A program made the position numbers and the translations under genes. From contig MGUK01000084.1 in NCBI GenBank assembly GCA_001799995.1, positions 92,320 through 156,319 on the forward strand: a stretch of 64,000 nucleotides of DNA, in the 5' to 3' direction. Below the pieces are notes generated by a model, which did no database searches, was not told the origin of the DNA, and saw only the letters and a program-made list of their open reading frames with translations. Of this stretch, positions 20,345 through 45,955 are shown piece by piece. Positions within the stretch are counted from its first letter, which is position 1. The number at the start of each line of letters is the position of its first letter. This stretch comes from Elusimicrobia bacterium GWF2_62_30 (lineage in GTDB: Bacteria; Elusimicrobiota; Elusimicrobia; Elusimicrobiales; UBA9959).

Positions 20345-22773
<2,429 letters not shown>

Positions 22774-22788
22774 GCCGGCGGCTGCACA

Positions 22789-24288
22789 ATGGATAAAACA
22801 GCCTACCTGAGCGTGTACGACAAGACCGGGGTGGAGGATTTCGCCCGCGGCCTGTACGAACTCGGCTTCGGGATCTACGCTTCCGGCTCCACATATGAAC
22901 TGCTTAAAGAGGCCGGGATCGAGGCCGAAGAGGTGCGCTATTCCCCGCCCGTGCCTTACGCCGTGCTCAAGGCGCTGTCGGGCCGCTTCCCGGCCGTTTC
23001 GGAGAACGGGGTGGAGCTGCCCCGGTTCTACGTCGTGGCGGCCAACCTTTTCCCCATAGCCAGCATCGTCGGGCAGGAAGAATTCGCCATAGAAGAGCTT
23101 TCCAGCTACCTCGATCAGTCAAATTCTTCGGTGCTCAGGGCTGCCGCCAGGGATTTTACCGGGGTCATTACCATCTCCAGCCAGGCGGACTATGGCCCCG
23201 TGCTAGGCGCGCTGAAGGAAGCCGGCGGGCTGGAGCCCGACGTAAAAAAACAGCTGGCCGCCAAGGCCTGGCAGCACCTGGCCGCTTACGACGCCACCGT
23301 GGCGCAGTACCTTTCCGAAACGGGGAACCTGCTGGGCGACGAAGTGGTGATGAGCCTGAAGAAAGTGTCCGACCTGGATTACGGCGAGAACCGCCACCAG
23401 AAGGCGGCCTTTTACGCCCTGAGCGGGGCCCGCCCCCGCGGCCTTAACGCGGCCAGGCTGCTCTCCGGCGGGGCGCTCAACCTTAACCATTACCTTGACC
23501 TGGATACGGCGTTCGAGCTGGCGATGGAGTTCGAGGAGCAGGTCTGTGTTATTTCGAAACACGCCCGCCCGGCGGCGGTGTGCGCCGTTCCCCAGCAGGG
23601 CGAATGCCTCCGCGGCGCCCTGCGCTGCGACCCTGTGGGAGCGGTAGGCGGCACGGCGGCGTTCAACCGCCAGGTAGAGGCGGCCACGGCTGATATGCTT
23701 AGGGGTACGTTCATCGAGAGCGTGGTGGCGCCCGGCTACGCCCCGGAGGCGCTCAGGCTGCTGCGTTCGCGCGAAGGCCTGCGGGTGCTGGAACTGCCCG
23801 CCCCGGTCCTTTCGCCGCACGAAGTGGAACTCCATTCCGTCTCGGGCGGCCTGCTTATAGAGACCAAGGACAACCAGCTTTTTTCCCGGGAGACGCCGTG
23901 CGTGACGCGCCGCAAGCCTTCCGAAGAAGAGCTGCGGGCCCTCAAGCTGGCCTGGAAAACGGTAAAATACGCCAAGACCTATTCCATCGTGCTCGCCGAC
24001 GCGTGCGGCACCCTCGCGGTCAGCGCCGCCGAAAGCTCCACGTACGACGCCGTGCGCGGGGCGCTGTGGAAGATGCACGACAAGCGCGCCCTGCTCCCGT
24101 CCCCGGGCCCGCTGGCGATGGCGGCCGACGCCGCGCTGCCGCTCAAGACGCTCCAGACGGCGCTGGCCGGCGGGGTCCGGGCCGTCATCCAGCCCGGCGG
24201 CTGGCAGGACGACCGCGACTGCGCCGAACTTTGCGATTCGAAGAACGCCGCCATGCTTTTTTCCGGCATACGCCATTTCAGGCACTGA
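22789..24288 (+). CDS. purH: PurH-like (IMPCH/AICAR transformylase fold) protein with degenerate active sites
   Basis: Keeps SVYDKTG, YGEN.HQ, QPGG and terminal RHFRH; lacks GRVKTLHP, IDIGG, SNAI, GQ.SR and SDAFFPF. Confidence 0.8.
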   Translation: MDKTAYLSVYDKTGVEDFARGLYELGFGIYASGSTYELLKEAGIEAEEVRYSPPVPYAVLKALSGRFPAVSENGVELPRFYVVAANLFPIASIVGQEEFAIEELSSYLDQSNSSVLRAAARDFTGVITISSQADYGPVLGALKEAGGLEPDVKKQLAAKAWQHLAAYDATVAQYLSETGNLLGDEVVMSLKKVSDLDYGENRHQKAAFYALSGARPRGLNAARLLSGGALNLNHYLDLDTAFELAMEFEEQVCVISKHARPAAVCAVPQQGECLRGALRCDPVGAVGGTAAFNRQVEAATADMLRGTFIESVVAPGYAPEALRLLRSREGLRVLELPAPVLSPHEVELHSVSGGLLIETKDNQLFSRETPCVTRRKPSEEELRALKLAWKTVKYAKTYSIVLADACGTLAVSAAESSTYDAVRGALWKMHDKRALLPSPGPLAMAADAALPLKTLQTALAGGVRAVIQPGGWQDDRDCAELCDSKNAAMLFSGIRHFRH

Positions 24289-24307
24289 ACGAAGGAAGGG
24301 AACAATT

Positions 24308-25504
24308 ATGGGAAACATCATCTTTGGCGCGCTGCGGGCCGTACTCCCGGCGCTGATCCTCCTGGCCGCCTGCCGCGCGGAGGGCGTCTGCGCCCCGGTC
24401 TTTACCGAAGTCCAGGGCAAGGTCCTGTACCGCGCCTCGGCGGACCAGGAATGGGCGCAGGCAAGCCCGGGCCTGCGGGTGGCCGCGGGCGGCAGGGTAA
24501 AGACGGGCTGGTTCTCCTGGGCGGAGATCCGTTACGACGAGCGGACCATGATCGGGCTGGGGTTCGACACCGATCTCACCATCTATACCGCCAAGGCCGA
24601 CGAATATTTTTCCAAACTGGCCGCCGGGACCGTGCGCGCGGTGGTCAAGACCGCCATCAAGTTCACCATAAAGACGCCCGTTTCCGTGGTGGCGGTGAAG
24701 ACCAAGGGCACGCGTTTCGTGACCGTGGCTACGGCTTTGGGCCAGACCAAGGTAAAGGTCTTCTCCGGGATAGTGACGGTCAGCGACGCCAAGACCCGCG
24801 ACAAGGCCGTGAAGCCGGAAGAGACCCTCTCCATCGACGAGGAAGGCTCCGGGCCCCCGGAGCGGGCGGCGTCCGTTTCCCTGGGCGGGGGCTGGGCCAT
24901 CGACCCGCCGTACGGGTTCCGGGCCCGCGGCAAGACCGGCTGGGAGATGAAGACCTTCTCGCCTACCAGCGTAAGTTTCAAAGGCATCGAAGTGTCCATG
25001 GAGCGGACCGAAACCCTTTCGCTGGAGAAGCGGCAGGTCAGGTGGGAAAAGGGACAGGATTGGCCGATGCAGTGCCCCGCGGGGCTTTCGGCCCGCGAAG
25101 TAAGGATAGGCTCCCTCGAAGGCAAGCCTTTTGTTTCCTACGCCTGCCCGTCGCAGGACCTGGGCCGGGCCGAGTGGCAGAACCGCTATTATGAGATGCC
25201 GATAGAGGACAGCGCCGGAGCGGTTTCCTCCGCGCTGCGTATGCGCTATAAGCATTCCGTCCAGGCCAAGCTGCCCTCCGCCGCCGAGCTGGGCAAACTG
25301 TACGGCAGGCAGCCCGCCGGCGGCTACGCCGGCAGGTTCCAGGCCGACGTGATGCCCCTGATAGCCGCCGCCGCTAATAAAACGAAGCTGGACGGCCCGG
25401 GGATAAAAGCGGCCACCGAGTCCGTCCTGACCCTGTACCGCGAAATATGGGCCGGCAGCAATACCGACGAGTACAGCGGCAAAGTGGTGCCGATGATACA
25501 GTAG
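24308..25504 (+). CDS. Secreted FecR-domain protein with unknown C-terminal domain
   Basis: Signal peptide; 'VQGKV...VKTG..S.AEI......IGL', 'IKTP......KGTRF.......TKVKVFSG.VTV'. Confidence 0.75.
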   Translation: MGNIIFGALRAVLPALILLAACRAEGVCAPVFTEVQGKVLYRASADQEWAQASPGLRVAAGGRVKTGWFSWAEIRYDERTMIGLGFDTDLTIYTAKADEYFSKLAAGTVRAVVKTAIKFTIKTPVSVVAVKTKGTRFVTVATALGQTKVKVFSGIVTVSDAKTRDKAVKPEETLSIDEEGSGPPERAASVSLGGGWAIDPPYGFRARGKTGWEMKTFSPTSVSFKGIEVSMERTETLSLEKRQVRWEKGQDWPMQCPAGLSAREVRIGSLEGKPFVSYACPSQDLGRAEWQNRYYEMPIEDSAGAVSSALRMRYKHSVQAKLPSAAELGKLYGRQPAGGYAGRFQADVMPLIAAAANKTKLDGPGIKAATESVLTLYREIWAGSNTDEYSGKVVPMIQ

Positions 25505-25549
25505 GAACATAAACTGCGGGGAAATACCGCAGCTGGACGTGTCTGAACG

Positions 25550-27256
25550 ATGAAAAATATATATTCAGGGATACTGGTCCCGGTTCTGGCCACGGCGCTG
25601 TTCGCGCACGCCGCAGGCGCAGCGAACGTAAAGGCGGAACTGGCTCCGCTTAACCCGGAGTTCGTCCAGTATTTACAGGTCGTGAACTCGACCGCTGTCT
25701 TGTCCGCGCTTCCTGCCCCGAACGCGGTACTGGGGAGCGCCGGGCGCGGGTTCGGCCGGATCCCTTCCCCGCTTCTCCCGGTCAGGGGCCGCGCTTTAAC
25801 CGCGGAGGAGAACGACTCCGGGCTCACTTACGCTCCCGCCTACGACTTGCGCGACCATGGCAAGGTCACCGCGGTGAAAGATCAGGGCGCCTGCGGCGAC
25901 TGCTGGGCTTTCTCGGCGATGGGTTCAATGGAATCCTACTTCATGCCCAATATTCTGGACCTGTCGGAGGCGGACCTGAACGCCAACAGCGGGTTCGACA
26001 ATGGCTCCTGCAATGGCGGCAATGACTACATGTCCGCCGCGTACCTGACGCGCTGGAGCGGGCCGCTCCCGGAGTCCAGCTCCGGGGTGATAAAGCACGC
26101 GCAGGATATTATCTTCCTGACTCCGCGCTCCGGTCCAGCGGATAACGACCGCATTAAAAGCGCCCTGCTGGCCTATGGGGGCGTTACGGCCGCGTTCTAT
26201 TACAGCGACGCCAATTACAACGCCGCTACCCACGCCTACTATGCTTCAGTTTCCGCCGCCGGCAACCATGAGGTCGTCATAGTAGGCTGGGACGATAATT
26301 ACGATAAGGCCAATTTTAACACGGTTCCCGCCGGCAACGGCGCCTTCCTCTGCAAAAATTCCTGGGGCGCCTCCTGGGGCGACAATGGCTATTTCCATGT
26401 TTCCTATTACGATGCCGTGTTTTCCCGCTCGGATTATTCCTCGGCCTTTACCGGGGAACCGGTCGGGAATTATTCCCGGGTGTACAGCTATGACAAACTG
26501 GGCTGGGTACAAAATTACGGGTACAGCGCCGTTACCGCCTGGTATTCCAATATTTTCACCGCTGTCGCCGAAGAGGGGTTAAAGGCGGTCGGGTTTTATA
26601 CCAACGATTCGGCTACCGCCTACACGGTCTATGTTTATCGCGGGGTGAACGCCGGCCAGCCGGTCAGCGGGTCACTCGCCTATTCGGCGAGCGGGTCTTT
26701 CACCTCCCCCGGCTATCATACGGTTTCCGTGGGCTACCTTCCCCTCAGCGCGGGCCAGCGCTTCTCCGTGGTCGTAAAGGCGGTTAATGCGAGTTATACC
26801 TTCCCGGTCCCCGTAGAGGTGAAATTGACCGGCTATTCCGGACAGGCTTCCGCTTCGGGCAACAGCTATATGAGCGGCGATGGCGCTTCCTGGAGCGCTT
26901 TGCCGGCGCTGGCCGCAACGCTCACCAACGTCCCGCTGAAAGCTTACACTTCCTCGCAGCCCCCGGAAGGCGTGGTCGCGCTGACGGACAACCTGCTAAG
27001 GCCGCTGAAGAACCCCGCCGTGAAATGCAAAATAGCCCTGTCCATCTTCTCTCCCGGCAATGTGAGCGTAAAGATCTATACACAGAACGGGGGACTGGTA
27101 AGGACGCTGTATCACGGGCCGCAGGCCATCGGATCAGCCAATTACTTATGGGACGGCAGGAACGATGGCGGCGGGCTGGTGGCCAGCGGGGTCTACCTGG
27201 TCCATATCAAGGGACCGGGCACCGCTAAGACCGAGAAAGTGGTGGTGATAAAATGA
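25550..27256 (+). CDS. Papain-family (C1A) cysteine peptidase with lectin-like domain and FlgD-Ig/T9SS-like C-terminal domain
   Basis: QGACGDCWAF (catalytic Cys), NHEVVIVGWDD (His), KNSWG (Asn); C-terminus 'IYTQNGGLVRTL...WDGRNDGG...ASGVY...KVVVIK'. Confidence 0.92.
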   Translation: MKNIYSGILVPVLATALFAHAAGAANVKAELAPLNPEFVQYLQVVNSTAVLSALPAPNAVLGSAGRGFGRIPSPLLPVRGRALTAEENDSGLTYAPAYDLRDHGKVTAVKDQGACGDCWAFSAMGSMESYFMPNILDLSEADLNANSGFDNGSCNGGNDYMSAAYLTRWSGPLPESSSGVIKHAQDIIFLTPRSGPADNDRIKSALLAYGGVTAAFYYSDANYNAATHAYYASVSAAGNHEVVIVGWDDNYDKANFNTVPAGNGAFLCKNSWGASWGDNGYFHVSYYDAVFSRSDYSSAFTGEPVGNYSRVYSYDKLGWVQNYGYSAVTAWYSNIFTAVAEEGLKAVGFYTNDSATAYTVYVYRGVNAGQPVSGSLAYSASGSFTSPGYHTVSVGYLPLSAGQRFSVVVKAVNASYTFPVPVEVKLTGYSGQASASGNSYMSGDGASWSALPALAATLTNVPLKAYTSSQPPEGVVALTDNLLRPLKNPAVKCKIALSIFSPGNVSVKIYTQNGGLVRTLYHGPQAIGSANYLWDGRNDGGGLVASGVYLVHIKGPGTAKTEKVVVIK

Positions 27257-28200
27257 AACTATTACCCGCCGCCGCCTGTTTCTCTCTCGCCGCGTTCCTG
27301 TTCTCCTGCGGGCGCGCAGGAGCCGACACCGGGCTTACCGGGGCGTCGATACTTACCCGCCCTGTCGGCGCGAGGTCCTCCGGGATGGGACGCGCGTTCA
27401 CGGCTGTGCCGGGGGACGCGGAGAGCTTGCTATATAACCCGGCCGGCCCGGGCCTTGCCGCGCGGAGCTCCGTGTATCTCGCGTACATGAACGGCTTCGC
27501 TGACGGCCGGTACGGGCTGGCCGCCCTCCCGCTCAGGCTCGGACCTCTTACGCTGACCCCGGCTTATCTCTACTATGATTCCGGCAAGATAACCCTGAAC
27601 CTTTCGGACGGCACGCAGGAAACGGTGACCGCCGAGTTGGACAAGGTGGCCATGATCTCCGGCGCATACTCCCCGGCGGCCGGACTGGCGGTGGGGGGCA
27701 CTTTGAAATTCACTACGATAGCCCTGGCCGAGACCGCGTCCGCCTCGGCCAGCCATTATGACCTGGGCATCCTGTACCGGATGGCTTCCGGGCTCAGCTT
27801 CGGCGCGGCTTCGCTTAATCACGGGGACTACATTAAATTCGAGGAAGAAGGGGATCCCGCGCCTGTGACAACGCGCGCCGGAGTTTCCTACAAAACAGAA
27901 TTCCGCCCGGAGCTGATAGGCAGCCCGGATGACATTTCTTACAGCGATATCGTGCTTTCCGCCGACTGGAGCAGGACCGCGAAAGAAAGCTCCTGTTACC
28001 AGGCCGGCGCGGAGGTGAACATGGAGATGAGCGTGGGGGTAATGCTCAGCCTGCGGGGGGGCTACCTGTTCGACAGGGACGACGAAGGGATGACCCTCGG
28101 TGTAGGGGTCAGGAAGAACGAGTGGAACTTCGGCGTCGGCTACGAAACTTCGAAAAACCTGTCCCCCAGGTTCCCGGTCTCGCTTTCCCTGGAATTCTGA
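27253..28200 (+). CDS. Second PorV/PorQ-family outer-membrane beta-barrel
   Basis: 'PVGARSSGMGRAFTAV...LYNPAG', 'LRGGY', terminal Phe; ATGA overlap with the peptidase stop. Confidence 0.8.
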   Translation: MKLLPAAACFSLAAFLFSCGRAGADTGLTGASILTRPVGARSSGMGRAFTAVPGDAESLLYNPAGPGLAARSSVYLAYMNGFADGRYGLAALPLRLGPLTLTPAYLYYDSGKITLNLSDGTQETVTAELDKVAMISGAYSPAAGLAVGGTLKFTTIALAETASASASHYDLGILYRMASGLSFGAASLNHGDYIKFEEEGDPAPVTTRAGVSYKTEFRPELIGSPDDISYSDIVLSADWSRTAKESSCYQAGAEVNMEMSVGVMLSLRGGYLFDRDDEGMTLGVGVRKNEWNFGVGYETSKNLSPRFPVSLSLEF

Positions 28201-28206
28201 CGCCCG

Positions 28207-29397
<1,191 letters not shown>

Positions 29398-29420
29398 GAT
29401 GGTTCTCCTTGGACCCGCCG

Positions 29421-30455
29421 TTAAGGCGTCAGAATAACTTTGCCGCATTTCTTCTCCCTGGAATTTATCAGGTCGAAGGCCTTCCTGAAATCCTTGAAAC
29501 GGTAGGTGTGCGTGACGGCGGGCCTGGGGTCGACGGCGCCGGATTTAAGCAGGCTTTCCATCTTGTACCAGCTGCGGAAGATCTCCCGCCCGGAAATGCC
29601 TTCCAGCCGTATGCCGCGGCGCACGATGTCGCCGGCGTAGTCTATGCTGAGGTTCGTGACCGGGAGGCCGAAAGCGACGAAGCGCCCGCCGGGCCGGAGG
29701 GCTTTCAGGCACAGTTCCACGGAGTCCGCCGCGCCGCTCATTTCCACTACCGCGTCCGCGCCTTCCGCCCCGCAGACCTTGGCGATCTTCTGCAGGCAGT
29801 CCTTTGCCGTTGGATCTATCGCCGTGGCCGCGCCCATTTTAAGGGCGAGGCGCCGGCGGTAAAGCGAGGCGTCCAGCGCTATCACTTTGCGCGCGCCGCC
29901 GGCTTTGGCGATGCCCGCCGCGAAAAGCCCCTGAGGCGCGCAGCCGGAAATGACCACCGTTTTGCCGACGATGTCTTCGGCCAGAATGGCGTGGACGGAA
30001 CTGCCGAACGGGCCCATCACGGCGCCGACGTCCTTAAGGGTGTCGTCGGTGTGCTTCCAGGAGCAGCGGGCGGGCACGGCGGCGTATTCGGCGAGCCCGC
30101 CGGGGATGTCGCGGCCGATAACGCGCAGGTCCTGGCAGATATGGCGCTGGTCGTTGCGGCATTGCCCGCAGGTGCCGCAGAAGATATGGGATTCGACGGA
30201 AACGAAATCCCCTTTTTCGAAGCCTTTCGCCAGGGAGCCGGTTTCCACCACTTCGCCGCAGAAGTCCTGGCCGAAGATAAAGGGGAGAGAGGGAGGGGTG
30301 AAAGCGGGGTCGGTCCAGTTGTAGAGCGCAAGGTCGCCGGAACTTATGGAGGCGGCGGTTACCCGGATCAGGAGCTCGTCCTTGTTGATTACGGGAACTT
30401 CCATGTCGCGGTAATCCGCGCCGCGCGCCCGCGAAGTCTTTACTATGGCTTTCAT
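29421..30455 (-). CDS. tdh: L-threonine 3-dehydrogenase-like MDR protein lacking catalytic Zn ligands
   Basis: Tdh-like throughout (VSVESHIFC, GISGRE, CGKVIL); structural CxxCxxCx7C kept; ICGTD->ISSGD, GHE->GQD, EP->GP. Confidence 0.8.
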   Translation of the reverse strand: MKAIVKTSRARGADYRDMEVPVINKDELLIRVTAASISSGDLALYNWTDPAFTPPSLPFIFGQDFCGEVVETGSLAKGFEKGDFVSVESHIFCGTCGQCRNDQRHICQDLRVIGRDIPGGLAEYAAVPARCSWKHTDDTLKDVGAVMGPFGSSVHAILAEDIVGKTVVISGCAPQGLFAAGIAKAGGARKVIALDASLYRRRLALKMGAATAIDPTAKDCLQKIAKVCGAEGADAVVEMSGAADSVELCLKALRPGGRFVAFGLPVTNLSIDYAGDIVRRGIRLEGISGREIFRSWYKMESLLKSGAVDPRPAVTHTYRFKDFRKAFDLINSREKKCGKVILTP

Positions 30456-30583
30456 CTGGTTCTCCTTAAGGCCGAAGAAAATCGGGACTGACCGGCACCG
30501 CAGTATTTATGATATAAAAAAAAGGGCGGAGAAAAAAATATGTTTAATTCCCGGGAAATTTAGTAAATTGTATATGGACCTTT

Positions 30584-30973
30584 ATGCCGGAACTTTCATG
30601 TGTGCTGCCTCCCGAAGACCGCCTGGTGCTTCTGCCGAAGAACCCCGGAGTCCTTTTTCTTTTCTGGCAATTCTCCGCCAGCCGTGCGGAGGCTTTCCGC
30701 GCCTCGGCGCTGGGCGCTGAAGTGGAGCTGCGCCTTTTCTATTCCGAAGACAAGGCGCAGGCCTCCTCCCGCAGGGCCGCGTGGGATTCCTTCAAGGGCT
30801 ACCTGGAAGTTCCGGCGCAGGGCAGGACCTATACCGCGGCGCTCTACGCTCTGCGCAACGGCGAGTGGGAAAAGTTCCTGGAGTCCAACCCCGCCGCCTC
30901 CCCGGCTTCCGCCGGAGCGGCCGAAGAGCGCGCCTACGCCAGCCTGGAATTCCACAAGAGGGCCCAGGTATGA
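30584..30973 (+). CDS. DUF4912-like protein
   Basis: 'DRLVLLPKNPGVLFLFW...ESN' pattern; typical position just upstream of a GH57 gene. Confidence 0.7.
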   Translation: MPELSCVLPPEDRLVLLPKNPGVLFLFWQFSASRAEAFRASALGAEVELRLFYSEDKAQASSRRAAWDSFKGYLEVPAQGRTYTAALYALRNGEWEKFLESNPAASPASAGAAEERAYASLEFHKRAQV

Positions 30974-32577: not shown

Positions 32578-32585
32578 ATAGTTAT

Positions 32586-32630: not shown

Positions 32631-32639
32631 CGCCCTGGT

Positions 32640-35898: not shown

Positions 35899-35909
35899 TT
35901 TAAAGGTGC

Positions 35910-35943
35910 AAAAAAACCCCGCCGGGACGCGGCGGGGTTTTTT
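35910..35943 (-). terminator. Intrinsic terminator after eno
   Basis: aaaaaaccccgccg-ggacg-cggcggggtttttt. Confidence 0.85.
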
Positions 35944-35955
35944 GCCGGGGCCCTG

Positions 35956-37239
35956 TTACTTGAACTTGAAGACGGAGTCTTTCGCGTAGCGGGCCTTCTT
36001 GCCGAGTTCTTCTTCTATGCGGATAAGCTGGTTGTACTTGCACAGGCGCTCCGAGCGGCAGGGGGCGCCGGTCTTTATCGCGCCGGCGTTCGTGGCCACG
36101 GCCAGGTCCGCAATAAAGGCGTCCTCGGTCTCGCCGGAGCGGTGGCTGATCACGGTGGCGTAATTCGCCCTGTGGGCCTGCTCGATGACGCGCACGGTCT
36201 CGGTCAGGGAGCCGATCTGGTTAAGCTTGATGAGGATGGCGTTGCCCACTTCTTCCTCGATGCCCCGCTTGAGGCGCTCGGGGTTGGTGACAAAAATGTC
36301 GTCGCCGACCACCCGGGCCTTCTTGCACAGGTTCTTCGACAGGTGGTCCCAGCCTTCCCAATCGTCCTCGGCGAGCGGGTCCTCGTAGGAGATGATCGGG
36401 AAATGCTTGCGCCACTCGGCGTACTTGGACGTCATTTCCTGGGCGGTCAGGTTCGACCCTTCGAACACGTAGCGGTCGTTCTGGAAGAATTCGCTGGCGG
36501 CGGAATCCAGCGCTATCTGCACTTCCTTGAAGGTGTAGCCCGCTTCTTTTATAGCGTTGCAGATGGTCTCCAGCACGGACTCGTGCGTGAAGATCTTGGG
36601 GGCGAAGCCGCCCTCGTCGCCTACGGCCGTGGTGTAGCCGGCCTTGGCCAGTATTTTCTTAAGCGTGTGATAGATCTCGCAGCCCATGCGCACGGCGTCC
36701 GTGAACCTGGCCGCGCCCGTGGGGACTATCATGAACTCCTGGATGTTGATGCCGGAATCGGCGTGCTTGCCGCCGTTGATGATGTTCATCATCGGGGCGG
36801 GGATAATGAAATCCTTGTGCTTGAGGCCGTAGGCCTTGCGGATGTAGGCGTAGAGCGGGAGTTTTGCCGAGACCGCGCCGGCGCGGGCCAGCGCCATGGA
36901 GACGGAGAGAATGGAATTGGCGCCCAGCTTGGTCTTCATCTGGGTGCCGTCCAGCTCTATCATCATCTCGTCGATCTTTATCTGGTCGGCCTTGAGGCCG
37001 GTTATCTCGTCGGCGATGGGCTTGTTCACGTTCTCCACGGCCTTGGTGACGCCTTTGCCGAGGTAGCGCTTGCCGCCGTCGCGCATTTCAAGGGCCTCAT
37101 GGGAGCCGGTGGAAGCTCCGCTCGGCACCGCCGCCCGCCCGAAGGAACCGTCGGTAAGGAGCACGTCGGTCTCCACGGTGGGGAAACCGCGCGAGTCGAG
37201 GATCTCCCTGGCTGTGATCTTCTTTATTTTAGCGTCCAT
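35956..37239 (-). CDS. eno: Enolase
   Basis: [39 protein letters not shown]. Confidence 0.98.
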
Positions 37240-37289
37240 TGTGTTTTTTTCTCCTAAGCAGGTCCGCCGCCTTAACCGGCGCCGGCCTT

Positions 37290-38786
37290 CTAAAATTTAC
37301 CGCCGACTATCTTCTTGCCGGCTTCGTTGAGCGCGGCCGAGGTCTTGGGCGAGAAGGTTTCCGTATAGACACGCACCACGGGCTCCGTGCCGGAGGGCCG
37401 CAGGCCGAGCCAGCTCCCGTCCTTCATGATGAACTTGAACCCGTCCGTGTGGTCTATGCGCCAGACGGAGGCCCCCGCCAGGTTGAGCGGCGGATTCAAT
37501 TTGAGGCGCTCTACGAGGGATTCCATGTTCATGTTCCCGTCCAGGCGCAGGTTCGTCCGTGAAGTGATGAAGCTGCCGTGGCGCTTGTTCATGTCAGCGA
37601 TGATCTTCTTGATAGGTTTGCGCTCGTAGGCCACCATTTCCGCCATCAGCAGGCAGGCGAGGATGCCGTCCTTCTCCGGCACGTGGTTCATTATCGAGAG
37701 CCCGGCCGATTCTTCGCCGCCTATGATGTACTGGCCGGTGCGCAGGAGGTTGCCGATGTGCTTGAAGCCTACGGCGGTCTCGCGCACTTCCAGGCCGTGG
37801 TGCTTGGCCACCGCGTCCACGAAGTGGGAGGTCATCACCGAGCGGGCGACCTTGCCTTTCAGCCCGCGGTTCTTGACCAGGTGCTCCAGCACGAGGCCCA
37901 GCACCAGGTTCGGGGAGATCCAGGTCCCGTCGGAATCTATGACGCCGTAGCGGTCCGCGTCGCCGTCGCACGCGAGGCCCAGGTGGAGCTTGTTCTTGAG
38001 CACGGCGGCCTTCAGCCCGCCCAGGTTCTCTTCGTCGGTGTCCGGGGAGTGCCCGCCGAACAGCACGTCGCGCTCTTCCCGCAGGCCTATGACCTTGGCC
38101 CCCGCCTCTTCCAGGATAGGGCGCAGGTAGGTGCGCGCCGCCCCGTGGACGGAGTCGGCCGCGATCTTCAGCCCGGCTTTCTTTATGGCGGAAAGATCCA
38201 GCAGCGAAGCGATCTGCTTCTTATAGTTCGCGTGGAAATCCTCCACGCGGATGATCCCTGCGGAAACGCCGTGCTCGAAAGGTATATGCTTTTCCACTTC
38301 GGCGTTGGTGAGCGCCTGCACCCTGGCCTCGAGGTCGTTGGTGATCTCGCTTATGGCCGGGCCGCCCCAGTAGGGCGTCCACTTGAACCCGTTGTACTGC
38401 GGGGGGTTGTGGCTGGCGGTCAGCATCACGCCGCCGGCGGAGTTGGTCCGCATCACTTCCCACGCCACCACGGGGGTGGGGGTCTCGGTGTTGGAGATGG
38501 CGGCCGTTATGCTTTCGGCCGCGATGGCTTCAGCCACGGTCTTGGCGAAATCTTCGGAGAGATAGCGGGTATCGTAGCCTACTATGATCTTGGCCGTCTT
38601 GGGCGGCTGCTTGTCCAGTTTCTTCAGGTTGAGGAGGTATTCCTCGCCCTTGAAACCGTATTCCTTGTGCTCGTTCACGTGTTCCGCCACGGCGTGGCTG
38701 ACGCGGCGCAGGTTGTTTATATTGAATTCTTCGGCTATTATTGCCCTCCAGCCAGAGGTGCCGAATTTGATATTTGAGGTCGCCAT
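37290..38786 (-). CDS. Phosphoglucomutase/phosphomannomutase family protein
   Basis: FGTSGWR, TASHNP, DGDADR, GEES, RPSGTEP; start at MATSN. Confidence 0.93.
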
Positions 38787-38794
38787 AGCTTCTG

Positions 38795-38803
38795 AATATA
38801 GCA
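38795..38803 (-). promoter_or_regulatory. Extended -10 (TGcTATATT) 8 nt before the phosphohexomutase ATG
   Basis: Minus strand reads tgc-TATATT-cagaagct-ATG. Confidence 0.5.
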
Positions 38804-38892
38804 AAAAAGACTTTATAAAGCAAAGAATGGCCTACATTACGCCCGGGGCCGGCCGCCCGGCCCGTATTTTTTGTAGAATATACCGTATCCTG

Positions 38893-39369
38893 ATGAAGAA
38901 ATCACTTGTCATGGCCGGCCTGCTGGCGGCGGGCCCTTTATACGGGGCCGCGCCGGAGCCGGCGATGGAGCTCAAAGGCTATCTCTCCTCCTGGACGCAG
39001 AGCTGCCCCGGCGGCGCCTGCTCGCTGCCCAAACCGGGAGAGCGCAACCGGCCCGTCACGCTGCGGCTCGGGCTGCCGTCTTCCCCGGGGGAAGCTTCCG
39101 CCGTTAAGACTTTCCAGGAGCTTGCCCTGCCCGGGGGCGGCGTCCTGTCCGCGGGACTGGATTTTTTCGCCATCTGCCCGTACGCGGGCAGGGGCAACTG
39201 CGCCGGGCGCTATTTCCAGGCGCAGGTCTCCCTTTCCGGGCCCGCCGGCGCCTTCTGCGCCGCGGCCCTGAACCCCGGTGACTTCGATCCTTTCCCCGTG
39301 CTGATGTGCGCGGGCCTGGCCCCCGACGGTACCCGCTTCGGCGTCACGCTGCACCGGCTCCCGCTATAA
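38893..39369 (+). CDS. Hypothetical secreted Cys-containing protein
   Basis: Signal peptide from MKKSLV; six Cys; TAGAAT box just upstream. Confidence 0.7.
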   Translation: MKKSLVMAGLLAAGPLYGAAPEPAMELKGYLSSWTQSCPGGACSLPKPGERNRPVTLRLGLPSSPGEASAVKTFQELALPGGGVLSAGLDFFAICPYAGRGNCAGRYFQAQVSLSGPAGAFCAAALNPGDFDPFPVLMCAGLAPDGTRFGVTLHRLPL

Positions 39370-39372
39370 ATT

Positions 39373-40065
39373 ATGACGACGACAAAACCCGATGTGTTCT
39401 CCCGCAGCTGGCCGGTAGCCGAAACGGCGGCGTACTTCGCCGCGCTTACCGCGGCGGACGACGGGTTCGCGCCCGAAGCGGCGGCGGCGATGGAGCGCGG
39501 GGGCGTGCGCGACCGGGCCGTGACGTCGCTGGAAGGCAGGCTGCTGGAAGCGCTGGCAAGGATCTCAGGCGCGAGGAAGGCCGTGGAGATCGGGACGCTT
39601 TACGGCTACTCGGCGCACTGGATCGCCAGGGGCATGCCGGAGTCCGGCAGGCTTTATTCGCTTGAAAAGGACCCGGCCTGCGTGAACGCGGCCAAGGACG
39701 CGGTAGCGGCTTCGATGCTGTCGCGCAAGGTCACCGTCATGGAAGGCCCGGCGGCCGAAAGCCTGAAAACCCTTTCCAAGCTGGCGCCGTTCGATCTCTG
39801 CTTTATCGACGCCGACGCCGGGGAGTACCCGGATCACCTGCGCTGGGCCGCGGCCAACCTGCGCCCCGGCGGCCTGGTGCTGGCGAACAACGTCTTCATA
39901 GAAGGCAGGATCCCCGCGGCGGATTGCAGCGCGGCGGACAATACCCGCGCCCGCGCGATGCGGGAATTCTTCCACATCCTCTTCGATTCCGACCGCTTCG
40001 TGTCCGCCTCCGTTATCCCTACCCGGGAAGGAATGGCGCTCGGGGTAAAGACGCAGGCAAAGTGA
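39373..40065 (+). CDS. Class I SAM-dependent O-methyltransferase-like protein (CCoAOMT/YrrM type) with altered active site
   Basis: EIGTLYGYS, FIDAD, LRPGG; DADK->DADA, DN->NN. Confidence 0.82.
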   Translation: MTTTKPDVFSRSWPVAETAAYFAALTAADDGFAPEAAAAMERGGVRDRAVTSLEGRLLEALARISGARKAVEIGTLYGYSAHWIARGMPESGRLYSLEKDPACVNAAKDAVAASMLSRKVTVMEGPAAESLKTLSKLAPFDLCFIDADAGEYPDHLRWAAANLRPGGLVLANNVFIEGRIPAADCSAADNTRARAMREFFHILFDSDRFVSASVIPTREGMALGVKTQAK

Positions 40066-41222
40066 ATATCCGCACCCTGTCGCTGCTAACGCTGCTGCTG
40101 GCCTTCTCCGCCTGTACGGAGGAGGACGCGGCCAGGCCGCGCTTCGCGGCCAGGAACCAGCCGGCGCCGGAGCTGCGCCTGCCCAAACTGCTGAACGCCC
40201 CCGCGGCGGAAATACGCGGCTGGGACGCTCTCCGGGACAAGGCCGTGGTGCTGGAATTCTGGGCCACCTGGTGCGAGGAATGCGTGGACTCCATCCCGCA
40301 CCTCAACGACCTGGCGGCGGCTGCCGGCGACGCCCCCGTGGTCTTCATCTCGGTCACCGACGAGTCCGAAGCGGACGTGAAGGAATTCCTCAAGTCCCAT
40401 CCCATGAAGGGCTGGATAGCTCCGGAGGCCGGGGCGGACATTTTCAGGGCCTTCCGGGTTTACGGGCGGCCGCACACGGTACTTATCTCCAGGGACGGCA
40501 GGGTGGCCGATATCACCGTCCCCGGCGCGGTTACGGAGGAGGCGGTGAAAAGGCTCCTCAGCGGCGCTCCGGCGGCCCAGGCGGGGCGCTCCGCCCCGGC
40601 GGCCGCGGACGTGCTGGCCGAATTCTATCTGGCGGAGGCCGCCGTTTCCGTCTCCAGCGCCAGCTACGGCCCCGACCGCATGAGCGGCGCGGGCATACCG
40701 CTTAAGCACGCTTTTGATTTCGTCTTCGGCCAGGCCGACAAGCTGGAGGTCAAGCCGGAGGCCGCGCGGGCGATGAACGGTTTTTACGATATACGCTTCC
40801 GCTTCCCGAAGGGCCGCGGTGAAAAGTACCGCAGGGAGTTCTTCCTGAAAGGGCTGGAAACAGCGCTGGGGCTGAAGGTGAAAGACCTTTCAAAGGAATC
40901 CGAAGTGTACCTGCTTAAAAGGGCGCCCGGCGGGCCGCTCAACGTCAGGAAGAAGGAGACCCCCGGCGCGGCCGGCTCCGACGGGGGGAAATGCGCGGTG
41001 GATGGCGGGTCGTTCGGCGTGCTCGGCGCCGCGCTGGCCGAGAGGCTGGGCGAACCGGTGCTCGACGAGACCGGGCTTAAAGGTTATTACGCCTATGCCT
41101 TCGATTTTAAAAGCGGCGATAAAAAAACTTTCAACGCCGAATTGAATTCCCAGCTGGGGCTGCGGCTCGAGCGGCGCCTGCGCAAGATCCGCGTGCTCGA
41201 GATCAGCCGGCCGGAACCATGA
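40062..41222 (+). CDS. Lipoprotein: TlpA-like redoxin domain fused to DUF3738/TIGR03435-like domain
   Basis: Lipobox FSAC; EFWATWCEEC; 'PVLDETGLKG.Y...LGLRLE'; GTG start overlapping upstream TGA. Confidence 0.75.
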   Translation: MNIRTLSLLTLLLAFSACTEEDAARPRFAARNQPAPELRLPKLLNAPAAEIRGWDALRDKAVVLEFWATWCEECVDSIPHLNDLAAAAGDAPVVFISVTDESEADVKEFLKSHPMKGWIAPEAGADIFRAFRVYGRPHTVLISRDGRVADITVPGAVTEEAVKRLLSGAPAAQAGRSAPAAADVLAEFYLAEAAVSVSSASYGPDRMSGAGIPLKHAFDFVFGQADKLEVKPEAARAMNGFYDIRFRFPKGRGEKYRREFFLKGLETALGLKVKDLSKESEVYLLKRAPGGPLNVRKKETPGAAGSDGGKCAVDGGSFGVLGAALAERLGEPVLDETGLKGYYAYAFDFKSGDKKTFNAELNSQLGLRLERRLRKIRVLEISRPEP

Positions 41223-41644
41223 AAAGATTGTCCTCCAAACCCACCGTCTATCTGATCGACGGCTCCAATTTCTCCATGCGCTTCTGGGAGAAGGCCGGCG
41301 GCGTCTCGGCGGAACAGCTCGAAAAGGAATTCGTGAACTGGCTCGCGGAAGTAGCGCGCGCGGAGCTGCTGCGGGCTTCGTGCTTCCGGGTGGTGTTCGA
41401 CGGCCCCTGCCGCCGGAGCGGGCCGGCCGGCCCTTCGATAACCATTTATTACAGCGATTCGGAGCCGGCCGACGAGATGCTGGTGGAGCGCGGCTACTTC
41501 ATGCAGAACGAGGGGATCCGCGCCATCATCGTCACTTCTGACAACGGCCTGCGCGACCGCGCCGCCGCCGAGGGCGTAAAGACCATGAACTGCGAGACTT
41601 TCCTTAAGCTCGCCGGGGACGAGCTCCGCCGGGAGAGCCGCTGA
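41219..41644 (+). CDS. NYN-domain (YacP-like, PIN fold) ribonuclease
   Basis: IDGSN, VVFDG, ADE, VTSD. Confidence 0.8.
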   Translation: MKRLSSKPTVYLIDGSNFSMRFWEKAGGVSAEQLEKEFVNWLAEVARAELLRASCFRVVFDGPCRRSGPAGPSITIYYSDSEPADEMLVERGYFMQNEGIRAIIVTSDNGLRDRAAAEGVKTMNCETFLKLAGDELRRESR

Positions 41645-41735
41645 CCCGCCCGCGGGCATTTTTGCGGATATTCTGCCGCCGTAAATTTGTAGAATATTGT
41701 GCTGACGCGGGCCGGATGCCGCGGGCGTGTTTTCA

Positions 41736-41819
41736 GGGCTTGTGGCGGAACTGGTAGACGCGACGGACTTAAAATTCGTTGGCCGCAAGGCCGTGTGGGT
41801 TCGAGTCCCACCATGCCCA
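41736..41819 (+). tRNA. tRNA-Leu (anticodon TAA)
   Basis: D-loop with GG, anticodon loop CTTAAAA, long variable arm ggcc-gcaa-ggcc, T-loop GGTTCGAGTCC; CCA not encoded. Confidence 0.93.
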
Positions 41820-41843
41820 CACACTGAACGGTTTTGAACGATC

Positions 41844-42482
41844 ATGGAGGCTTCTATGGGATTTGCACCTGCGGGGATAAAACTGATAATCGGCGGCATA
41901 ATCGCGGCCGCTGGCGGCGGCGCTTTAATGGGCTGCTGCCGCTGGGCGGGCATCCCGCTGCTCTTTCTCGGCGTATTCTTCGCCGGCTTCTCGGCCTATT
42001 TCTTCCGCGACCCTGAGCGGCCCAAAACTTTCGCGCCCGGCGAGATAGCCTGTCCCGCGGACGGCACCGTGCTGACCATCAAGAACGAGGGCACCCCGGG
42101 CATTACCGTCATCCGCATTTTCCTTTCCGTCCTGAACGTGCACGTGCAGCGCTCGCCGCTGGAAGGCAAGGTGGAGAAGGTGAAGTTCACGCAGGGGAAG
42201 TTCGCCATCGCCTACAAGCCGGAGGCCGCCGATAACCAGCGCAACCTCATCCGGATAACCGGCGCCGGCGGTCGCGCCGTCGAGATAGAGCAGATAACCG
42301 GCTCCATCGCCCGCCGCATCGCCTGCTATGTGAAAGAGGGCCAGGAAGTGAAGGCCGGCGAGCGGGTAGGCATGATCTATTTCGGTTCGCAGGTAGCCGT
42401 CTACCTGCCCGAGTCGGCGAAGATAAGCGTGAAGCCCGGCGACAAAGTGGCCGGCGCCGAAACCGTGCTGGGCCAGTGGTGA
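41844..42482 (+). CDS. psd: Phosphatidylserine decarboxylase proenzyme (short type)
   Basis: FFRDPER, PADG, IFLSVLNVHVQRSP, FGS cleavage site. Confidence 0.93.
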   Translation: MEASMGFAPAGIKLIIGGIIAAAGGGALMGCCRWAGIPLLFLGVFFAGFSAYFFRDPERPKTFAPGEIACPADGTVLTIKNEGTPGITVIRIFLSVLNVHVQRSPLEGKVEKVKFTQGKFAIAYKPEAADNQRNLIRITGAGGRAVEIEQITGSIARRIACYVKEGQEVKAGERVGMIYFGSQVAVYLPESAKISVKPGDKVAGAETVLGQW

Positions 42483-42494
42483 GGTGAAACTAAC

Positions 42495-43313
42495 ATGGAA
42501 AACATTGAAATAATCCCCGAAAAAAGGCGGATCGATATTGCGAAGCTTAAAAAGACCGGGGCGGTGGTCCTGCCCTCCATCTTTACCATCGCCAATATGG
42601 CCTTCGGTTTCTTCTCCATCCTCTCCGCCTCGGAGGGGGAATATGTGCGGGCCTCGTGGTTCCTGATCGTTTCCTACGTGATGGACATGCTCGACGGACG
42701 CGTGGCGCGCCTGGTGCACGGCGAGAGCTCCTTCGGCGTGGAGATCGACTCCCTTTCCGACTGGATCTCTTTCGGCATAGCGCCCGCCTACCTGATCTAC
42801 AAGTTCGTGCTCAAGGATTACGGCTTCTGGGGCTACCCCGTGGCGTTCCTTTACGTCCTGTGCGGGGCTTTGCGCCTTGCCCGCTACAACGTGAAATCAC
42901 ACTTCGGCGGCAGCGACAAGGATTATTTCCAGGGGCTGCCCATCCCGGCGGCGGCCGGCATCCTGGTCTCCTTTGTGCTCGCCTACAGCATGATAGAGGG
43001 CGAAAGCGGCAGCCGCGGCATCCAGATAGTGATGGACAGGATGCCGTTCGTGTACGGCGTGGTGCCCTTCATCATGATCGCGCTCGCCCTGCTTATGGTG
43101 TCTTCCGCGCCCTACGCGGCTTTCAAGGGCGACATGCTCAAGCCCAACTCCATAAAGGGCATCGTGCTGATAACGGCGGTGCTCTCGATGATAGTGGCGT
43201 ACCCGCAGGACGCGCTGTTCGTCTTCTTCTCGGTTTACGCGCTTTCCGGAGTGCTCGCCGGGTTCTACGGGGCTTTCAAGAAGCTCTTCAGGGGCAAGGA
43301 AGCCGGCTGCTAG
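42495..43313 (+). CDS. pssA: CDP-diacylglycerol--serine O-phosphatidyltransferase
   Basis: D.LDGRVAR...G...DSLSD motif, RLARYN, FQGLPIP. Confidence 0.93.
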   Translation: MENIEIIPEKRRIDIAKLKKTGAVVLPSIFTIANMAFGFFSILSASEGEYVRASWFLIVSYVMDMLDGRVARLVHGESSFGVEIDSLSDWISFGIAPAYLIYKFVLKDYGFWGYPVAFLYVLCGALRLARYNVKSHFGGSDKDYFQGLPIPAAAGILVSFVLAYSMIEGESGSRGIQIVMDRMPFVYGVVPFIMIALALLMVSSAPYAAFKGDMLKPNSIKGIVLITAVLSMIVAYPQDALFVFFSVYALSGVLAGFYGAFKKLFRGKEAGC

Positions 43314-43330
43314 CGCTCCCGTACTCCAGG

Positions 43331-43358
43331 AAAAAGCCCGGGTTCGCCCGGGCTTTTT
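43331..43358. terminator. Bidirectional terminator
   Basis: aaaaagcccggg-ttcg-cccgggcttttt. Confidence 0.88.
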
Positions 43359-44833
43359 TATTTGCGGGGAAAAAGAGGGGGGACTTCCCGGGGCTCCGCC
43401 CCGTCGGTACGGGTTTTGCCGATGCCGAGCTGCAGTTGCATCCGGCTGGCCGTGTCGGGCATGAAAGGGTCGAGCCAGCCGGCGATGAGGCGCAGGCCCC
43501 AGATCATCTCCCGGAGGAAAGCCTTCAGCGCTTCCGGATCTTTTTTCGCCAGCTCCAGCGGTTTCCTGGCGTCCAGCAGGCCGTTCAGCCTCCCCAGCCC
43601 CAGCCAGATCTTTTCGAGGGCGGCTCCGAACCGCAGGCTCTCCATGTTCCTGTGCAGCTCCGGCGTCCACGAAGCTAATTCCCTGAAGACCGCGGAGTCC
43701 TCCGGCCTTTTCGGCAGGCGGTGGTCCAGGTACTGCGCCGCCATGCTCGTTACGCGCGAAAAAAGATCGCCCAGGTCGTTGGCCAGGTCGAAATTATAGC
43801 GGCGGTGAAAAGCCGTCATGGAGAACTCCCCGTCGGACCCGAAGGCCACCTCCCTGAAAAGGAAATAGCGCAGCGCGTCCACGCCGTAGTCCCTGACCAC
43901 GTCCTCGGCTTTGATGTAGTTGCCCCGCGTCCTGGAAATCTTGCGGCCGTTCATGGTCAGCCAGCCGTGGGCGTATACCCTGCGCGGCAGCTCCAGGCCC
44001 AGCGCCAGGAGCAGGGCCGGCCAGAGAACGCCCTGCGAACGGTGCGACTCCTTTCCCGCCAGGTGCACGTCGGCGGGCCAGATGGAATTGAAATCCGGCC
44101 CCGCCCCTTCCGGGGTGAAGCCCGGGCCGGTGGCGTAGCCGAGCAGCTCTTCGAACCGGGAGTGGACGGCGTGGTCCGGGTCTGACTTTACCGGCACGCC
44201 CCACGGCGCTTTCGTGCGCGAAACGGGGACGTCCCTGAGCCCCGCCCTGGCGAGATAGTCCAGTTCGCTCGCGCCGGGCCGGGGGGAAAGGAAGTCAGGG
44301 TGCTGCGCGTAATGCTCCTGCAGCGCCGGCCCATATTTGGAGAGCCTGAAAAAATAGGCGGCCTCCCTGGCCCGCTCCAGGGGCTTGCCGTGGACGGGGC
44401 ACTTCCCGTCCTTCAGCCCGTCCTCGTCGTGAAAATCGCCGCAGGCGGTACAATAGGGGCCGTCCTGGACGCCGCGGTAGATGTCCCCCGCCGCCAGGAG
44501 CTTTTCAAACACCGCCTGTACCGCCGCCTGGTGAGCCGCGTCGGTGGTGCGTAAAAAATTATCGTACCTGACGTTCAGGGTTTTCCAGAGGGCGCGGAAA
44601 TCGGCGGCTGCCGCGTCGCACCAGGCCTTGGGCTGCATGCCGCGTTCCCGGGCGGTCCTTTCGATGCCGGCGCCGTGCTCGCCCGTTCCAGTCTGCAGGA
44701 AGACCGTGATATCTCGGGAGCGCAGGTGGCGGGCCAGCACGTCGGCCGCGAGCGTAGTATAGGCGTGCCCCATGTGGGGCTTGTCTTCGACGGAATAAAG
44801 AGGTGTGGTGATGTAAAACTTCTTCGTGTGCAT
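43358..44833 (-). CDS. metG: Methionyl-tRNA synthetase (MetRS1)-like protein with degenerate Met pocket and KMSKS
   Basis: YITTP, HMGHAYTT, Zn knuckle, ALRYFL, LANDLG, LFPR; DEHG->GEHG, YVW->HSR, KMSKS->KISRT. Confidence 0.82.
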   Translation of the reverse strand: MHTKKFYITTPLYSVEDKPHMGHAYTTLAADVLARHLRSRDITVFLQTGTGEHGAGIERTARERGMQPKAWCDAAAADFRALWKTLNVRYDNFLRTTDAAHQAAVQAVFEKLLAAGDIYRGVQDGPYCTACGDFHDEDGLKDGKCPVHGKPLERAREAAYFFRLSKYGPALQEHYAQHPDFLSPRPGASELDYLARAGLRDVPVSRTKAPWGVPVKSDPDHAVHSRFEELLGYATGPGFTPEGAGPDFNSIWPADVHLAGKESHRSQGVLWPALLLALGLELPRRVYAHGWLTMNGRKISRTRGNYIKAEDVVRDYGVDALRYFLFREVAFGSDGEFSMTAFHRRYNFDLANDLGDLFSRVTSMAAQYLDHRLPKRPEDSAVFRELASWTPELHRNMESLRFGAALEKIWLGLGRLNGLLDARKPLELAKKDPEALKAFLREMIWGLRLIAGWLDPFMPDTASRMQLQLGIGKTRTDGAEPREVPPLFPRK

Positions 44834-45954: not shown

Positions 45955-45955
45955 G

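Follow-up and report, generated by a model that had tools for sequence, protein, structure and literature searches.

Gene content of the locus

The DNA studied here (the window) is a stretch of 64,000 nucleotides from the genome of Elusimicrobia bacterium GWF2_62_30 (contig MGUK01000084.1, positions 92,320 to 156,319; G+C content, about 62%). According to the list of open reading frames (ORFs) and profile searches, its 20.7- to 49.4-kb part carries about 25 genes. Four of these encode proteins related to PurH, L-threonine dehydrogenase (Tdh), O-methyltransferase (OMT), and type-1 methionyl-tRNA synthetase (MetRS1), in which residues needed for catalysis or ligand binding have been replaced (Table 1). 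The four altered genes belong to four different transcription units. An earlier reading made from the letters alone (the sequence-only reading) had described them as full-length ORFs that lost such residues without stops or frameshifts. The ORF check, in which all four were uninterrupted, and alignments to solved structures, from which the substitutions were read, bore this out. A sequencing or frame artefact was ruled out, since none of the ORFs is interrupted and assemblies made independently show the same states.

The codon usage of the four genes is host-like, as had also been claimed. The G+C content at third codon positions was 0.80 to 0.84, and the correlation of relative synonymous codon usage with the other genes was 0.90 to 0.96. 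A foreign origin was ruled out on this basis.

Relatives were taken from hit tables of the best 120 matches among proteins of 0.55 to 1.75 times the query length and from 10 related loci (L001 to L010) of named metagenome-assembled genomes, none of them the genome of the window itself. The surveys covered the 119 best listed relatives of the PurH-like protein, 121 Tdh sequences (the query and its 120 best matches), 127 of 151 OMT sequences (the query and 150 cluster representatives, those outside 191 to 299 amino acids being dropped), and 120 MetRS sequences (the query and its 119 best matches), which were scored at 30 key positions. The ratio of nonsynonymous to synonymous substitution rates (dN/dS) was calculated by the NG86 method for the MetRS-like and OMT-like genes, the two for which DNA of relatives was at hand. 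Residue labels follow E. coli MetRS and human ATIC; the columns themselves were compared with homologs.

Table 1. Features of the window, the four altered genes first (MDR, medium-chain dehydrogenase/reductase; SAM, S-adenosylmethionine)
Feature	Position	Strand	Remarks
PurH-like gene (P0001, 499 aa)	22789-24288	+	PurH fold; K-H pair present; cyclohydrolase loop and several transformylase motifs replaced
Tdh-like gene (P0002, 344 aa)	29421-30455	-	MDR fold; structural-zinc Cys4 present; catalytic-zinc ligands and second Gly of GxGxxG replaced
OMT-like gene (P0003, 230 aa)	39373-40065	+	Methyltransf_3 fold with SAM motifs; catalytic Lys replaced by Ala; metal Asp replaced by Asn
MetRS1-like gene (P0004, 491 aa)	43358-44833	-	HIGH and zinc knuckle present; Met pocket, second Lys of KMSKS, and anticodon Trp/Asn replaced
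ligA	20758-22773	+	Intact; same strand as the PurH-like gene, upstream by 16 nt
kbl	28207-29448	-	Glycine C-acetyltransferase family; motifs intact; NF005394, 480.9 > 460
holB and tmk	44845-46585	-	Upstream of the MetRS-like gene, same strand, 12-nt gap
holB	44845-45954	-	
ORF, 261 aa	38584-39369	+	Directly upstream of the OMT-like gene; no family match
tRNA-Leu(UAA)	41736-41820	+	Rfam
tRNA-Lys(UUU)	55460-55531	-	Rfam
Large secreted-type protein, at least 4493 aa	3-13484	+	Open at window start
PorV/PorQ-family gene	13566-14495	+	
Secreted-type C1 peptidase	25550-27256	+	
PorV/PorQ-family gene	27253-28200	+	
ORF, 398 aa	24308-25504	+	
ORF, 1018 aa	49643-52699	+	
ORF, 512 aa	55626-57164	+	
ORF, 265 aa	57236-58033	+	

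PurH-like protein

The PurH-like protein matched PF01808 with 249.8 bits and scored below both PurH equivalog cut-offs (361.5 against 402 and 301.6 against 528). In the alignment with the PurH proteins of M. tuberculosis and C. jejuni, it has no GRVKTLHP loop, and DQSN and AARD stand in place of DIGG and AAKN. Against the solved PurH structures, KHxNPCG reads KHARPAA (NPCG to RPAA), KSNA reads KTYS, GQxxRxD reads AESSTYD, SDAFFPF reads AADAALPL, and GGSxRD reads GGWQDD. Retained features are the K-H pair, YGENxHQ, and the C-terminal RHF.H. The accessible text of PMC3239186 describes a substrate-binding Asn and Arg in the C-terminal unit of PurH; these residues probably correspond to the KSNA and GQxxRxD columns, both of which are altered in the PurH-like protein.

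None of the 119 listed relatives has a GRVKTLH-type motif (0/119), while KHxRP was found in 71 and PGGW in 73 of them. About 70 of the 119 are 68 to 89% identical, nearly all are 499 amino acids long, and they have the derived motifs in common; the core members are named "hypothetical protein" by PGAP. A middle group (46 to 55% identity) and a far group (38 to 44% identity, some named PurH) also lack the cyclohydrolase loop. In a 70-row alignment, G199, N201, Q204, R495, H496, and H499 were invariant, and K257 and H258 were conserved in at least 90% of the rows. The AlphaFold2 model of the protein had a predicted local distance difference test score of 83.1 and was confident except at residues 184 to 217. 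The best Foldseek match of the model was M. tuberculosis PurH (E value, 5e-41), and a search of the ESM Atlas returned PurH-family clusters only, with no functional lead.

By these comparisons, the PurH-like protein is a member of a large and old PurH-like subfamily. The cyclohydrolase loop is absent and new conserved residues stand in place of the transformylase motifs; the most likely function would be the use of a different ligand or chemistry or a noncatalytic role.

At residues 88 to 96 (window positions 23050 to 23076), the protein has NLFPI, whereas the great majority of the listed relatives have NLYPx. This indicates a further change in the window copy, at a minimum of one position that its subfamily conserves.

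Tdh-like protein

The Tdh-like protein scored below both Tdh cut-offs (338.7 against 458.35 and 331.7 against 380). In the alignment with archaeal TDH structures, SICGTD is replaced by SISSGD, GHE by GQD, QEPLGN by MGPFGS, and GAGPLG by GCAPQG. The changed ligands of the catalytic zinc are Cys to Ser (S38), His to Gln (Q63), Glu to Asp (D64), and Glu to Gly (G148). The structural-zinc cysteines C93, C96, C99, and C107 were invariant in a 65-row alignment.

Both the catalytic Cys and the His were absent from 55 of the 121 surveyed sequences, and these 55 fall on one side of a single branch (one change; support, 98). The two residues are present in all canonical relatives (66/66), including that of Elusimicrobium minutum, and in none of the derived clade (0/55). 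Within this clade, Cys was replaced by Ser in 53 of 55 sequences and His by Gln (37 sequences), Arg (14), Glu (3), or Ser (1). The distal Glu148 is present in 15/55 and the second Gly of GxGxxG in 2/55, with Ala, Ser, Thr, or Glu as its commonest replacements. The rest of the protein is well conserved. At 95% or more, the clade kept 80 of 103 canonical-invariant columns, and a dozen clade-specific residues, including S38, T33, R115, H155, G275, R280, and E285, are conserved. Identity inside the clade is 67 to 92% across about 52 listed relatives.

This pattern points to a single ancestral event, in which one Elusimicrobia clade lost the catalytic-zinc site. The His, the Glu, and the second Gly of the NAD motif were then free to vary, while the remainder of the protein and the structural zinc site stayed conserved.

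The Tdh-like gene adjoins an intact kbl gene, as canonical tdh does. The kbl gene lies directly downstream on the same strand, with an overlap of 28 nt as listed. The most likely function of the Tdh-like protein would be that of a nondehydrogenase partner of the adjacent Kbl. A complex prediction with Kbl (single sequence) and the Tdh-like protein (65-row alignment) gave a score of 0.00 and a mark of 0.32, which weighs neither way on binding. No account of a Tdh-Kbl complex was found in the literature searched, including the accessible part of PMC9814548.

OMT-like protein

The OMT-like protein matched PF01596 with 96.7 bits (cut-off, 22). Compared with bacterial family-3 OMTs, DADK/DANK is replaced by DADA and the DN pair by NN, and the SAM motifs are intact. 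The first metal Asp is thus present, and in the Asp-Asn pair the window protein has Asn instead of Asp. Of the 127 surveyed sequences, 117 have the catalytic Lys and 112 the metal Asp; like the window protein, its two nearest cluster representatives lack the Lys.

Syntenic orthologs with 60 to 69% identity were found in 9 of the 10 related loci. None of them has the catalytic Lys (0/9; the residue is Ala, Val, Leu, Pro, or Ile), and the Asp-Asn pair reads GR, DG, DK, or GG in these nine and AG in the nearest representative (P0363). The SAM motifs AVEIGTLYGYS and LYSLEKD and a C-terminal block, AMREFFHVL.DS.RF, are conserved in the nine orthologs. The median dN/dS was 0.19 (45 pairs). The catalytic Lys and the metal-binding Asp-Asn pair are unconstrained in the window and its nine syntenic orthologs. 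Most likely, the protein has kept its ability to bind SAM and would no longer carry out metal-dependent, catechol-type O-methylation.

The 261-amino-acid ORF directly upstream of the OMT-like gene kept its position in nine loci. In six of the nine, only the part from about residue 71 to 104 onward aligns. As listed, this ORF overlaps pgm on the opposite strand, and its true start is probably later.

MetRS-like protein

The MetRS-like protein exceeded the cut-off of TIGR00398 (373.4 against 336.35) but not that of NF008900 (509.5 against 598), on which canonical relatives of 501 amino acids scored 644 and 632. Compared with the MetRS of Aquifex and Thermus, the HIGH motif (HMGH, residues 20 to 23) and the CxxC...CxxH zinc knuckle are present. 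The remaining signatures are changed: PIYYVND to PLYSVED, TGTDEHG to TGTGEHG, YVWFDA to HSRFEE, GKDILRFH to GKESHRSQ, KMSKT to KISRT, and the anticodon PW to PL. In the methionine pocket and around the amino group, this amounts to Tyr to Ser, Asn to Glu, Asp to Gly, Trp to Arg, Ile to Ser, and His to Gln. Five of the window residues (S14, G51, R226, S263, and Q267) occupy columns that are at least 97% invariant in 90 canonical relatives and that we take to be Tyr15, Asp52, Trp253, Ile297, and His301 of E. coli. Two anticodon-reading residues are also replaced (W426 by Leu and N356 by Asp).

At columns at least 97% invariant in the 90 canonical sequences, the MetRS-like protein differs at 23 of 133, compared with 0 to 2 of 133 in nine canonical controls. 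It differs at 127 of the 348 other columns, so that change at the invariant columns was roughly half as frequent (ratio, 0.47); 110 of the 133 were kept. None of the 30 key positions was lost in 91 of the 120 surveyed sequences, 8 had lost one to three, and 21 had lost four or more. The window copy had lost 13, and its closest listed relatives (65 to 69% identity) are canonical.

The eroded state required six changes on the FastTree tree and seven on an IQ-TREE tree, which was built from 68 rows after removal of 35 trait columns; supported branches force six of the seven. The erosion is recent and recurrent, with at least six origins. The same residues were lost repeatedly. Among the eroded sequences, Tyr14 was kept in 2/20, Ile263 in 0/21, Val209 in 1/21, and Tyr224 and Val225 in 2/21 each; Asn16, Asn352, and Asn356 were kept in 7/21 each; and Lys301, the second Lys of KMSKS, was kept in 5/21, compared with at least 97% of the 90 canonical sequences. 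Ile263 was replaced by Ala, Asp, Phe, Gly, Leu, Arg, Ser, or Thr, and Asp51 by Ala, Cys, Glu, Gly, or Asn. Such diverse replacements look like released constraint and not like a new pocket. His23, Cys128, Cys145, and Trp271-Pro272 were kept in all eroded sequences, and retention of canonical-invariant residues in the 21 was 0.79 to 0.88 in every region of the protein.

The dN/dS was 0.19 for canonical pairs (28 pairs), 0.27 for mixed pairs (24), and 0.29 (range, 0.25 to 0.29) for eroded pairs (3); these figures are rough but far from neutrality. At similar dS, dN was 0.18 to 0.23 for eroded and 0.085 to 0.126 for canonical copies, a difference of roughly 1.5- to 2-fold. Since the relic retains HIGH and the zinc knuckle and evolves only about 1.5 to 2 times faster than the canonical enzyme, a residual function is probably under selection.

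Second MetRS in related loci

The gene order around MetRS1 is alike on both sides in all 10 related loci (10/10), including tmk-holB-MetRS1. The gene is eroded in two of them, L004 and L006, which by their neighbouring genes are the nearest relatives of the window; the contigs with these two loci are DAOPZW010000006.1 and CAIRNJ010000090.1. In L009 (positions 6087 to 7766, plus strand) and L010 (about 6134 to 7810, plus strand), nrdJ and tmk flank a canonical type-2 (E. coli-like) MetRS of 559 amino acids (NF001100, 611.6 against 587), which is separated by about 2 kb from the resident MetRS1. No type-2 MetRS was found at the nrdJ-tmk place in the window or the other eight loci. In L001 and L003, insertions of about 3 to 4 kb between nrdJ and tmk contain large ORFs that are not MetRS by tblastn.

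Otherwise canonical MetRS1 proteins of L007 (positions 1842 to 3311), L009 (10001 to 11470), and L010 (10001 to 11470) have Cys in place of Tyr14, and that of L009 also has Ser in place of Asn16. Two of these three genomes, L009 and L010, are those with the second MetRS. The Tyr14-to-Cys change looks like a first step of MetRS1 erosion. In this genome group, erosion has recently and repeatedly affected the methionine pocket, the second Lys of KMSKS, and the residues that read the anticodon. Its likely cause is the charging of tRNA-Met by a second, type-2 MetRS, present in two related genomes and presumed for that of the window.

The holB gene directly upstream of the MetRS-like gene encodes a protein without the Walker A motif GxxxxGK[ST], and its first approximately 100 residues match no profile. 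The holB product, delta', is a classical inactive relative of AAA+ proteins, so that holB would be a fifth and textbook "pseudoenzyme" of the window.

Origin of the four genes and alternative explanations

The four genes probably encode folded, full-length descendants of PurH, zinc-type L-threonine dehydrogenase, cation-dependent class I OMT, and MetRS1, whose active sites were remodelled or eroded under purifying selection. The four events would be separate and unequal in age, and each gene apparently still occupies the ancestral chromosomal position of the enzyme. All four are predicted to have lost the parent activity, and their present roles would be binding or regulatory or would involve altered chemistry. 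The outcome is common to the four cases, in that active-site residues were lost and the protein was kept; the histories are separate.

Several claims of the sequence-only reading are in line with this interpretation. The residue losses are beyond chance, as seen from the invariant MetRS columns, the Tdh Cys and His, and the OMT Lys. Retention in place of decay is indicated by the dN/dS of the eroded MetRS (0.25 to 0.29) and OMT-like genes (median, 0.19) and by the identities among PurH-like (68 to 89%) and Tdh-like (67 to 92%) proteins. The description of the genes as paralogs was not supported. The gene order around the MetRS-like gene recurs in 10 related loci and that around the OMT-like gene in 9, and the Tdh-like gene stands beside kbl like canonical tdh, so that these genes look like positional orthologs altered in place. 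All four appear to be where the ancestral enzyme was, and none looks like a spare paralog. The earlier interpretation as a whole was therefore upheld for retention under selection and not for paralogs or a shared regulatory layer.

The relative ages of the changes are also informative. Genomes with a canonical MetRS1 already have the derived OMT-like gene, and cross-matching of separate hit tables suggests that they carry the derived Tdh-like and PurH-like genes as well. The derived states are thus nested at very different depths, which argues for four independent conversions in place and against a set of spare paralogs or a coordinated layer.

Several points weigh against this interpretation. 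No second MetRS was found in the 64 kb of the window or in the eroded loci L004 and L006. The length filter made truncated, truly decaying copies invisible to the hit tables. The dS values, 0.55 to 1.2, are near NG86 saturation, and the ratios are rough. Forcing the 21 eroded MetRS sequences together cost 690 log-likelihood units (approximately unbiased test, P = 5.6e-29), but the grouping was chosen once the first tree was known, which weakens the test. For the PurH-like and Tdh-like genes, positional orthology was deduced by matching separate hit tables and not from locus DNA. Finally, altered active sites can remain active: according to the accessible text of PMC10211241, some pseudokinases catalyse other transfers, and the available part of PMC12224309 documents zinc-free MDR reductases, in that DPAS-like MDRs without the catalytic zinc still reduce iminium ions.

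The last point leads to an alternative that we consider possible though doubtful, namely, that some or all of the four proteins are still enzymes, which act through noncanonical active sites or on new substrates. In the PurH-like protein, the K-H pair could serve for a different formyl donor or a different nucleotide; the OMT-like protein could need neither metal nor base for methylation; the Tdh-like protein could reduce a product of Kbl without zinc; and the MetRS-like protein could activate a different carboxylate. The strongly conserved motifs of the PurH-like subfamily itself (KHxRP, KTY, ESSTYD, and GGW) are not free variation and would fit such an activity, as would the clade-specific conserved residues of the Tdh-like protein, the conserved SAM motifs of the OMT-like protein, and the HIGH motif kept in the MetRS-like protein. 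However, the replacements at the lost positions of the Tdh-like, OMT-like, and MetRS-like proteins vary from genome to genome, indicating released constraint and not a specific new pocket.

It is improbable that the genes, above all the MetRS-like gene, are redundant copies heading for loss whose frames are merely unbroken so far. The dN of the MetRS-like genes above the canonical level at similar dS, the change of 17% of the canonical-invariant columns, the repeated and independent erosion, and the invisibility of truncated copies to the searches would be expected of such copies. Against this, the dN/dS of the eroded MetRS genes is far below 1, the invariant columns of the window protein changed more slowly than the others, and retention was high in every region. 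The frames in the window, L004, and L006 are intact although the three proteins are only 67 to 71% identical among themselves, and for the PurH-like and Tdh-like proteins, which are 68 to 92% identical in dozens of genomes, neutral decay is excluded.

The parent enzymes touch formyl-folate, glycine, SAM, and methionine, and all four descendants are retained under selection, from which one regulatory layer on C1/Met/SAM/Gly metabolism, made of dead paralogs acting as metabolite sensors or as regulators of active partners, had been proposed; this is very improbable, as the changes differ in depth and pattern (all 119 listed PurH-like relatives; 55/121 Tdh sequences with one origin; the OMT-like gene of the window and 9/9 syntenic orthologs; eroded MetRS in 2/10 loci with at least six origins), which argues for independent events, and as the genes lie in four transcription units with no riboswitch or shared RNA element near them at Rfam gathering scores in the whole window.

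If four independent conversions in place are confirmed, the genes would represent four uncharacterised bacterial families of former or repurposed enzymes. Automatic annotation names their relatives as the parent enzyme or as "hypothetical protein", and metabolic reconstructions of uncultured Elusimicrobia would misjudge threonine catabolism, the final steps of purine synthesis, and Met-tRNA charging. The MetRS1 series, from canonical through the change of Tyr14 alone beside a second MetRS to heavily eroded, would be a natural replicated experiment on an essential enzyme after its functional replacement and could reveal a noncatalytic role of the synthetase. A broader proposal, which we put forward tentatively and hold to be rather unlikely, is that resident housekeeping enzymes in this Elusimicrobia group have repeatedly been made noncatalytic in place and then kept by selection. 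MetRS1 would be the clearest case; after takeover by the type-2 enzyme, it would have lost the methionine pocket at least six times and yet been kept with its ATP motif and zinc knuckle. If this is true, a second job of MetRS1, such as binding of tRNA or of a partner, outlives catalysis.

Other features of the window

The neighbouring genes kept their motifs, as the sequence-only reading had stated for ligA, kbl, GH57, eno, nrdJ, and tmk; retention was also seen in valS, pgm, psd, pssA, cmk, and the C1 peptidase gene. The neighbouring enzymes scored above the curated cut-offs wherever a fitting model exists. The two tRNA genes were the only Rfam families at gathering score in the window.

Twice in the window, the gene for a large secreted-type protein has a PorV/PorQ-family gene next after it. 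The larger of the two proteins has CarboxypepD_reg, beta-propeller, and FlgD_ig-like C-terminal domains; the other is a C1 peptidase with a lectin-like and an FlgD_ig domain. This arrangement suggests pairs of type-IX-like secretion cargo and porin in an Elusimicrobia genome.

Four further ORFs, of 1018, 512, 265, and 398 amino acids, had no Pfam match at an E value of 1e-4 or below and no real NCBIfam match. The only match of the 398-amino-acid ORF, to the Lsa33 adhesin, was below threshold (E value, 8.4e-6; 25 bits against a cut-off of 420). The 1018-amino-acid ORF was kept in L004 and L006 with 69 to 72% identity.

Comparison with known systems

The four proteins would belong to a known kind, the pseudoenzyme or neofunctionalised enzyme. 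In full-text searches of literature outside subscription journals and supplements, no description of these four families was found; the topics covered were bacterial pseudoenzymes, Tdh-Kbl complexes, pseudoenzymes among aminoacyl-tRNA synthetase paralogs, PurH paralogs, zinc-less Tdh, purine auxotrophy of Elusimicrobia, and methionyl-tRNA synthetase of Elusimicrobia, the last without any match.

HisZ, GluQ-RS/YadB, and PoxA are aminoacyl-tRNA synthetase-like proteins with nontranslational roles. Like the eroded MetRS1, they keep the catalytic-core fold of a synthetase for another purpose. They are old and well defined and have conserved sites of their own, whereas the MetRS1 relics would be young, of repeated origin, and without a shared new pocket. 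Bacteria with MetRS1 and a horizontally acquired MetRS2 have reportedly been described, and L009 and L010 resemble them in having type-1 and type-2 MetRS genes in one genome. In the reported cases both enzymes are said to work; here the resident MetRS1 lost the pocket, the KMSKS Lys, and the anticodon residues in several lineages and yet was kept.

The AdoMetDC "prozyme" of T. brucei, as described in the accessible parts of PMC5201418 and of the review PMC10211241, is likewise an enzyme homolog that lacks conserved catalytic residues and is nevertheless retained. It is a duplicate that activates its active paralog (PMC5201418, in the same part), whereas the genes altered here are at ancestral loci and no active partner was seen.

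The PurH of M. acetivorans, present in a ribosome 50S dimerisation factor (PDB 9ou7; accessible text of PMC12605026), is an example of the PurH scaffold with a noncatalytic job and was the second-best solved match of the PurH-like protein of the window (E value, 1.1e-56). The M. acetivorans protein is canonical and of the active type, with all motifs, and nothing ties the Elusimicrobia protein to ribosomes; by analogy, the case would be a precedent for noncatalytic use of the PurH fold and nothing more. For the Tdh-like protein, the closest parallel is the DPAS-like MDRs, which share the MDR fold with substituted catalytic-zinc ligands and, in the available part of PMC12224309, are plant NADPH-dependent iminium reductases. 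In contrast, the Tdh-like clade also shows no constraint on the second Gly of the nucleotide motif, and the gene stays beside kbl.

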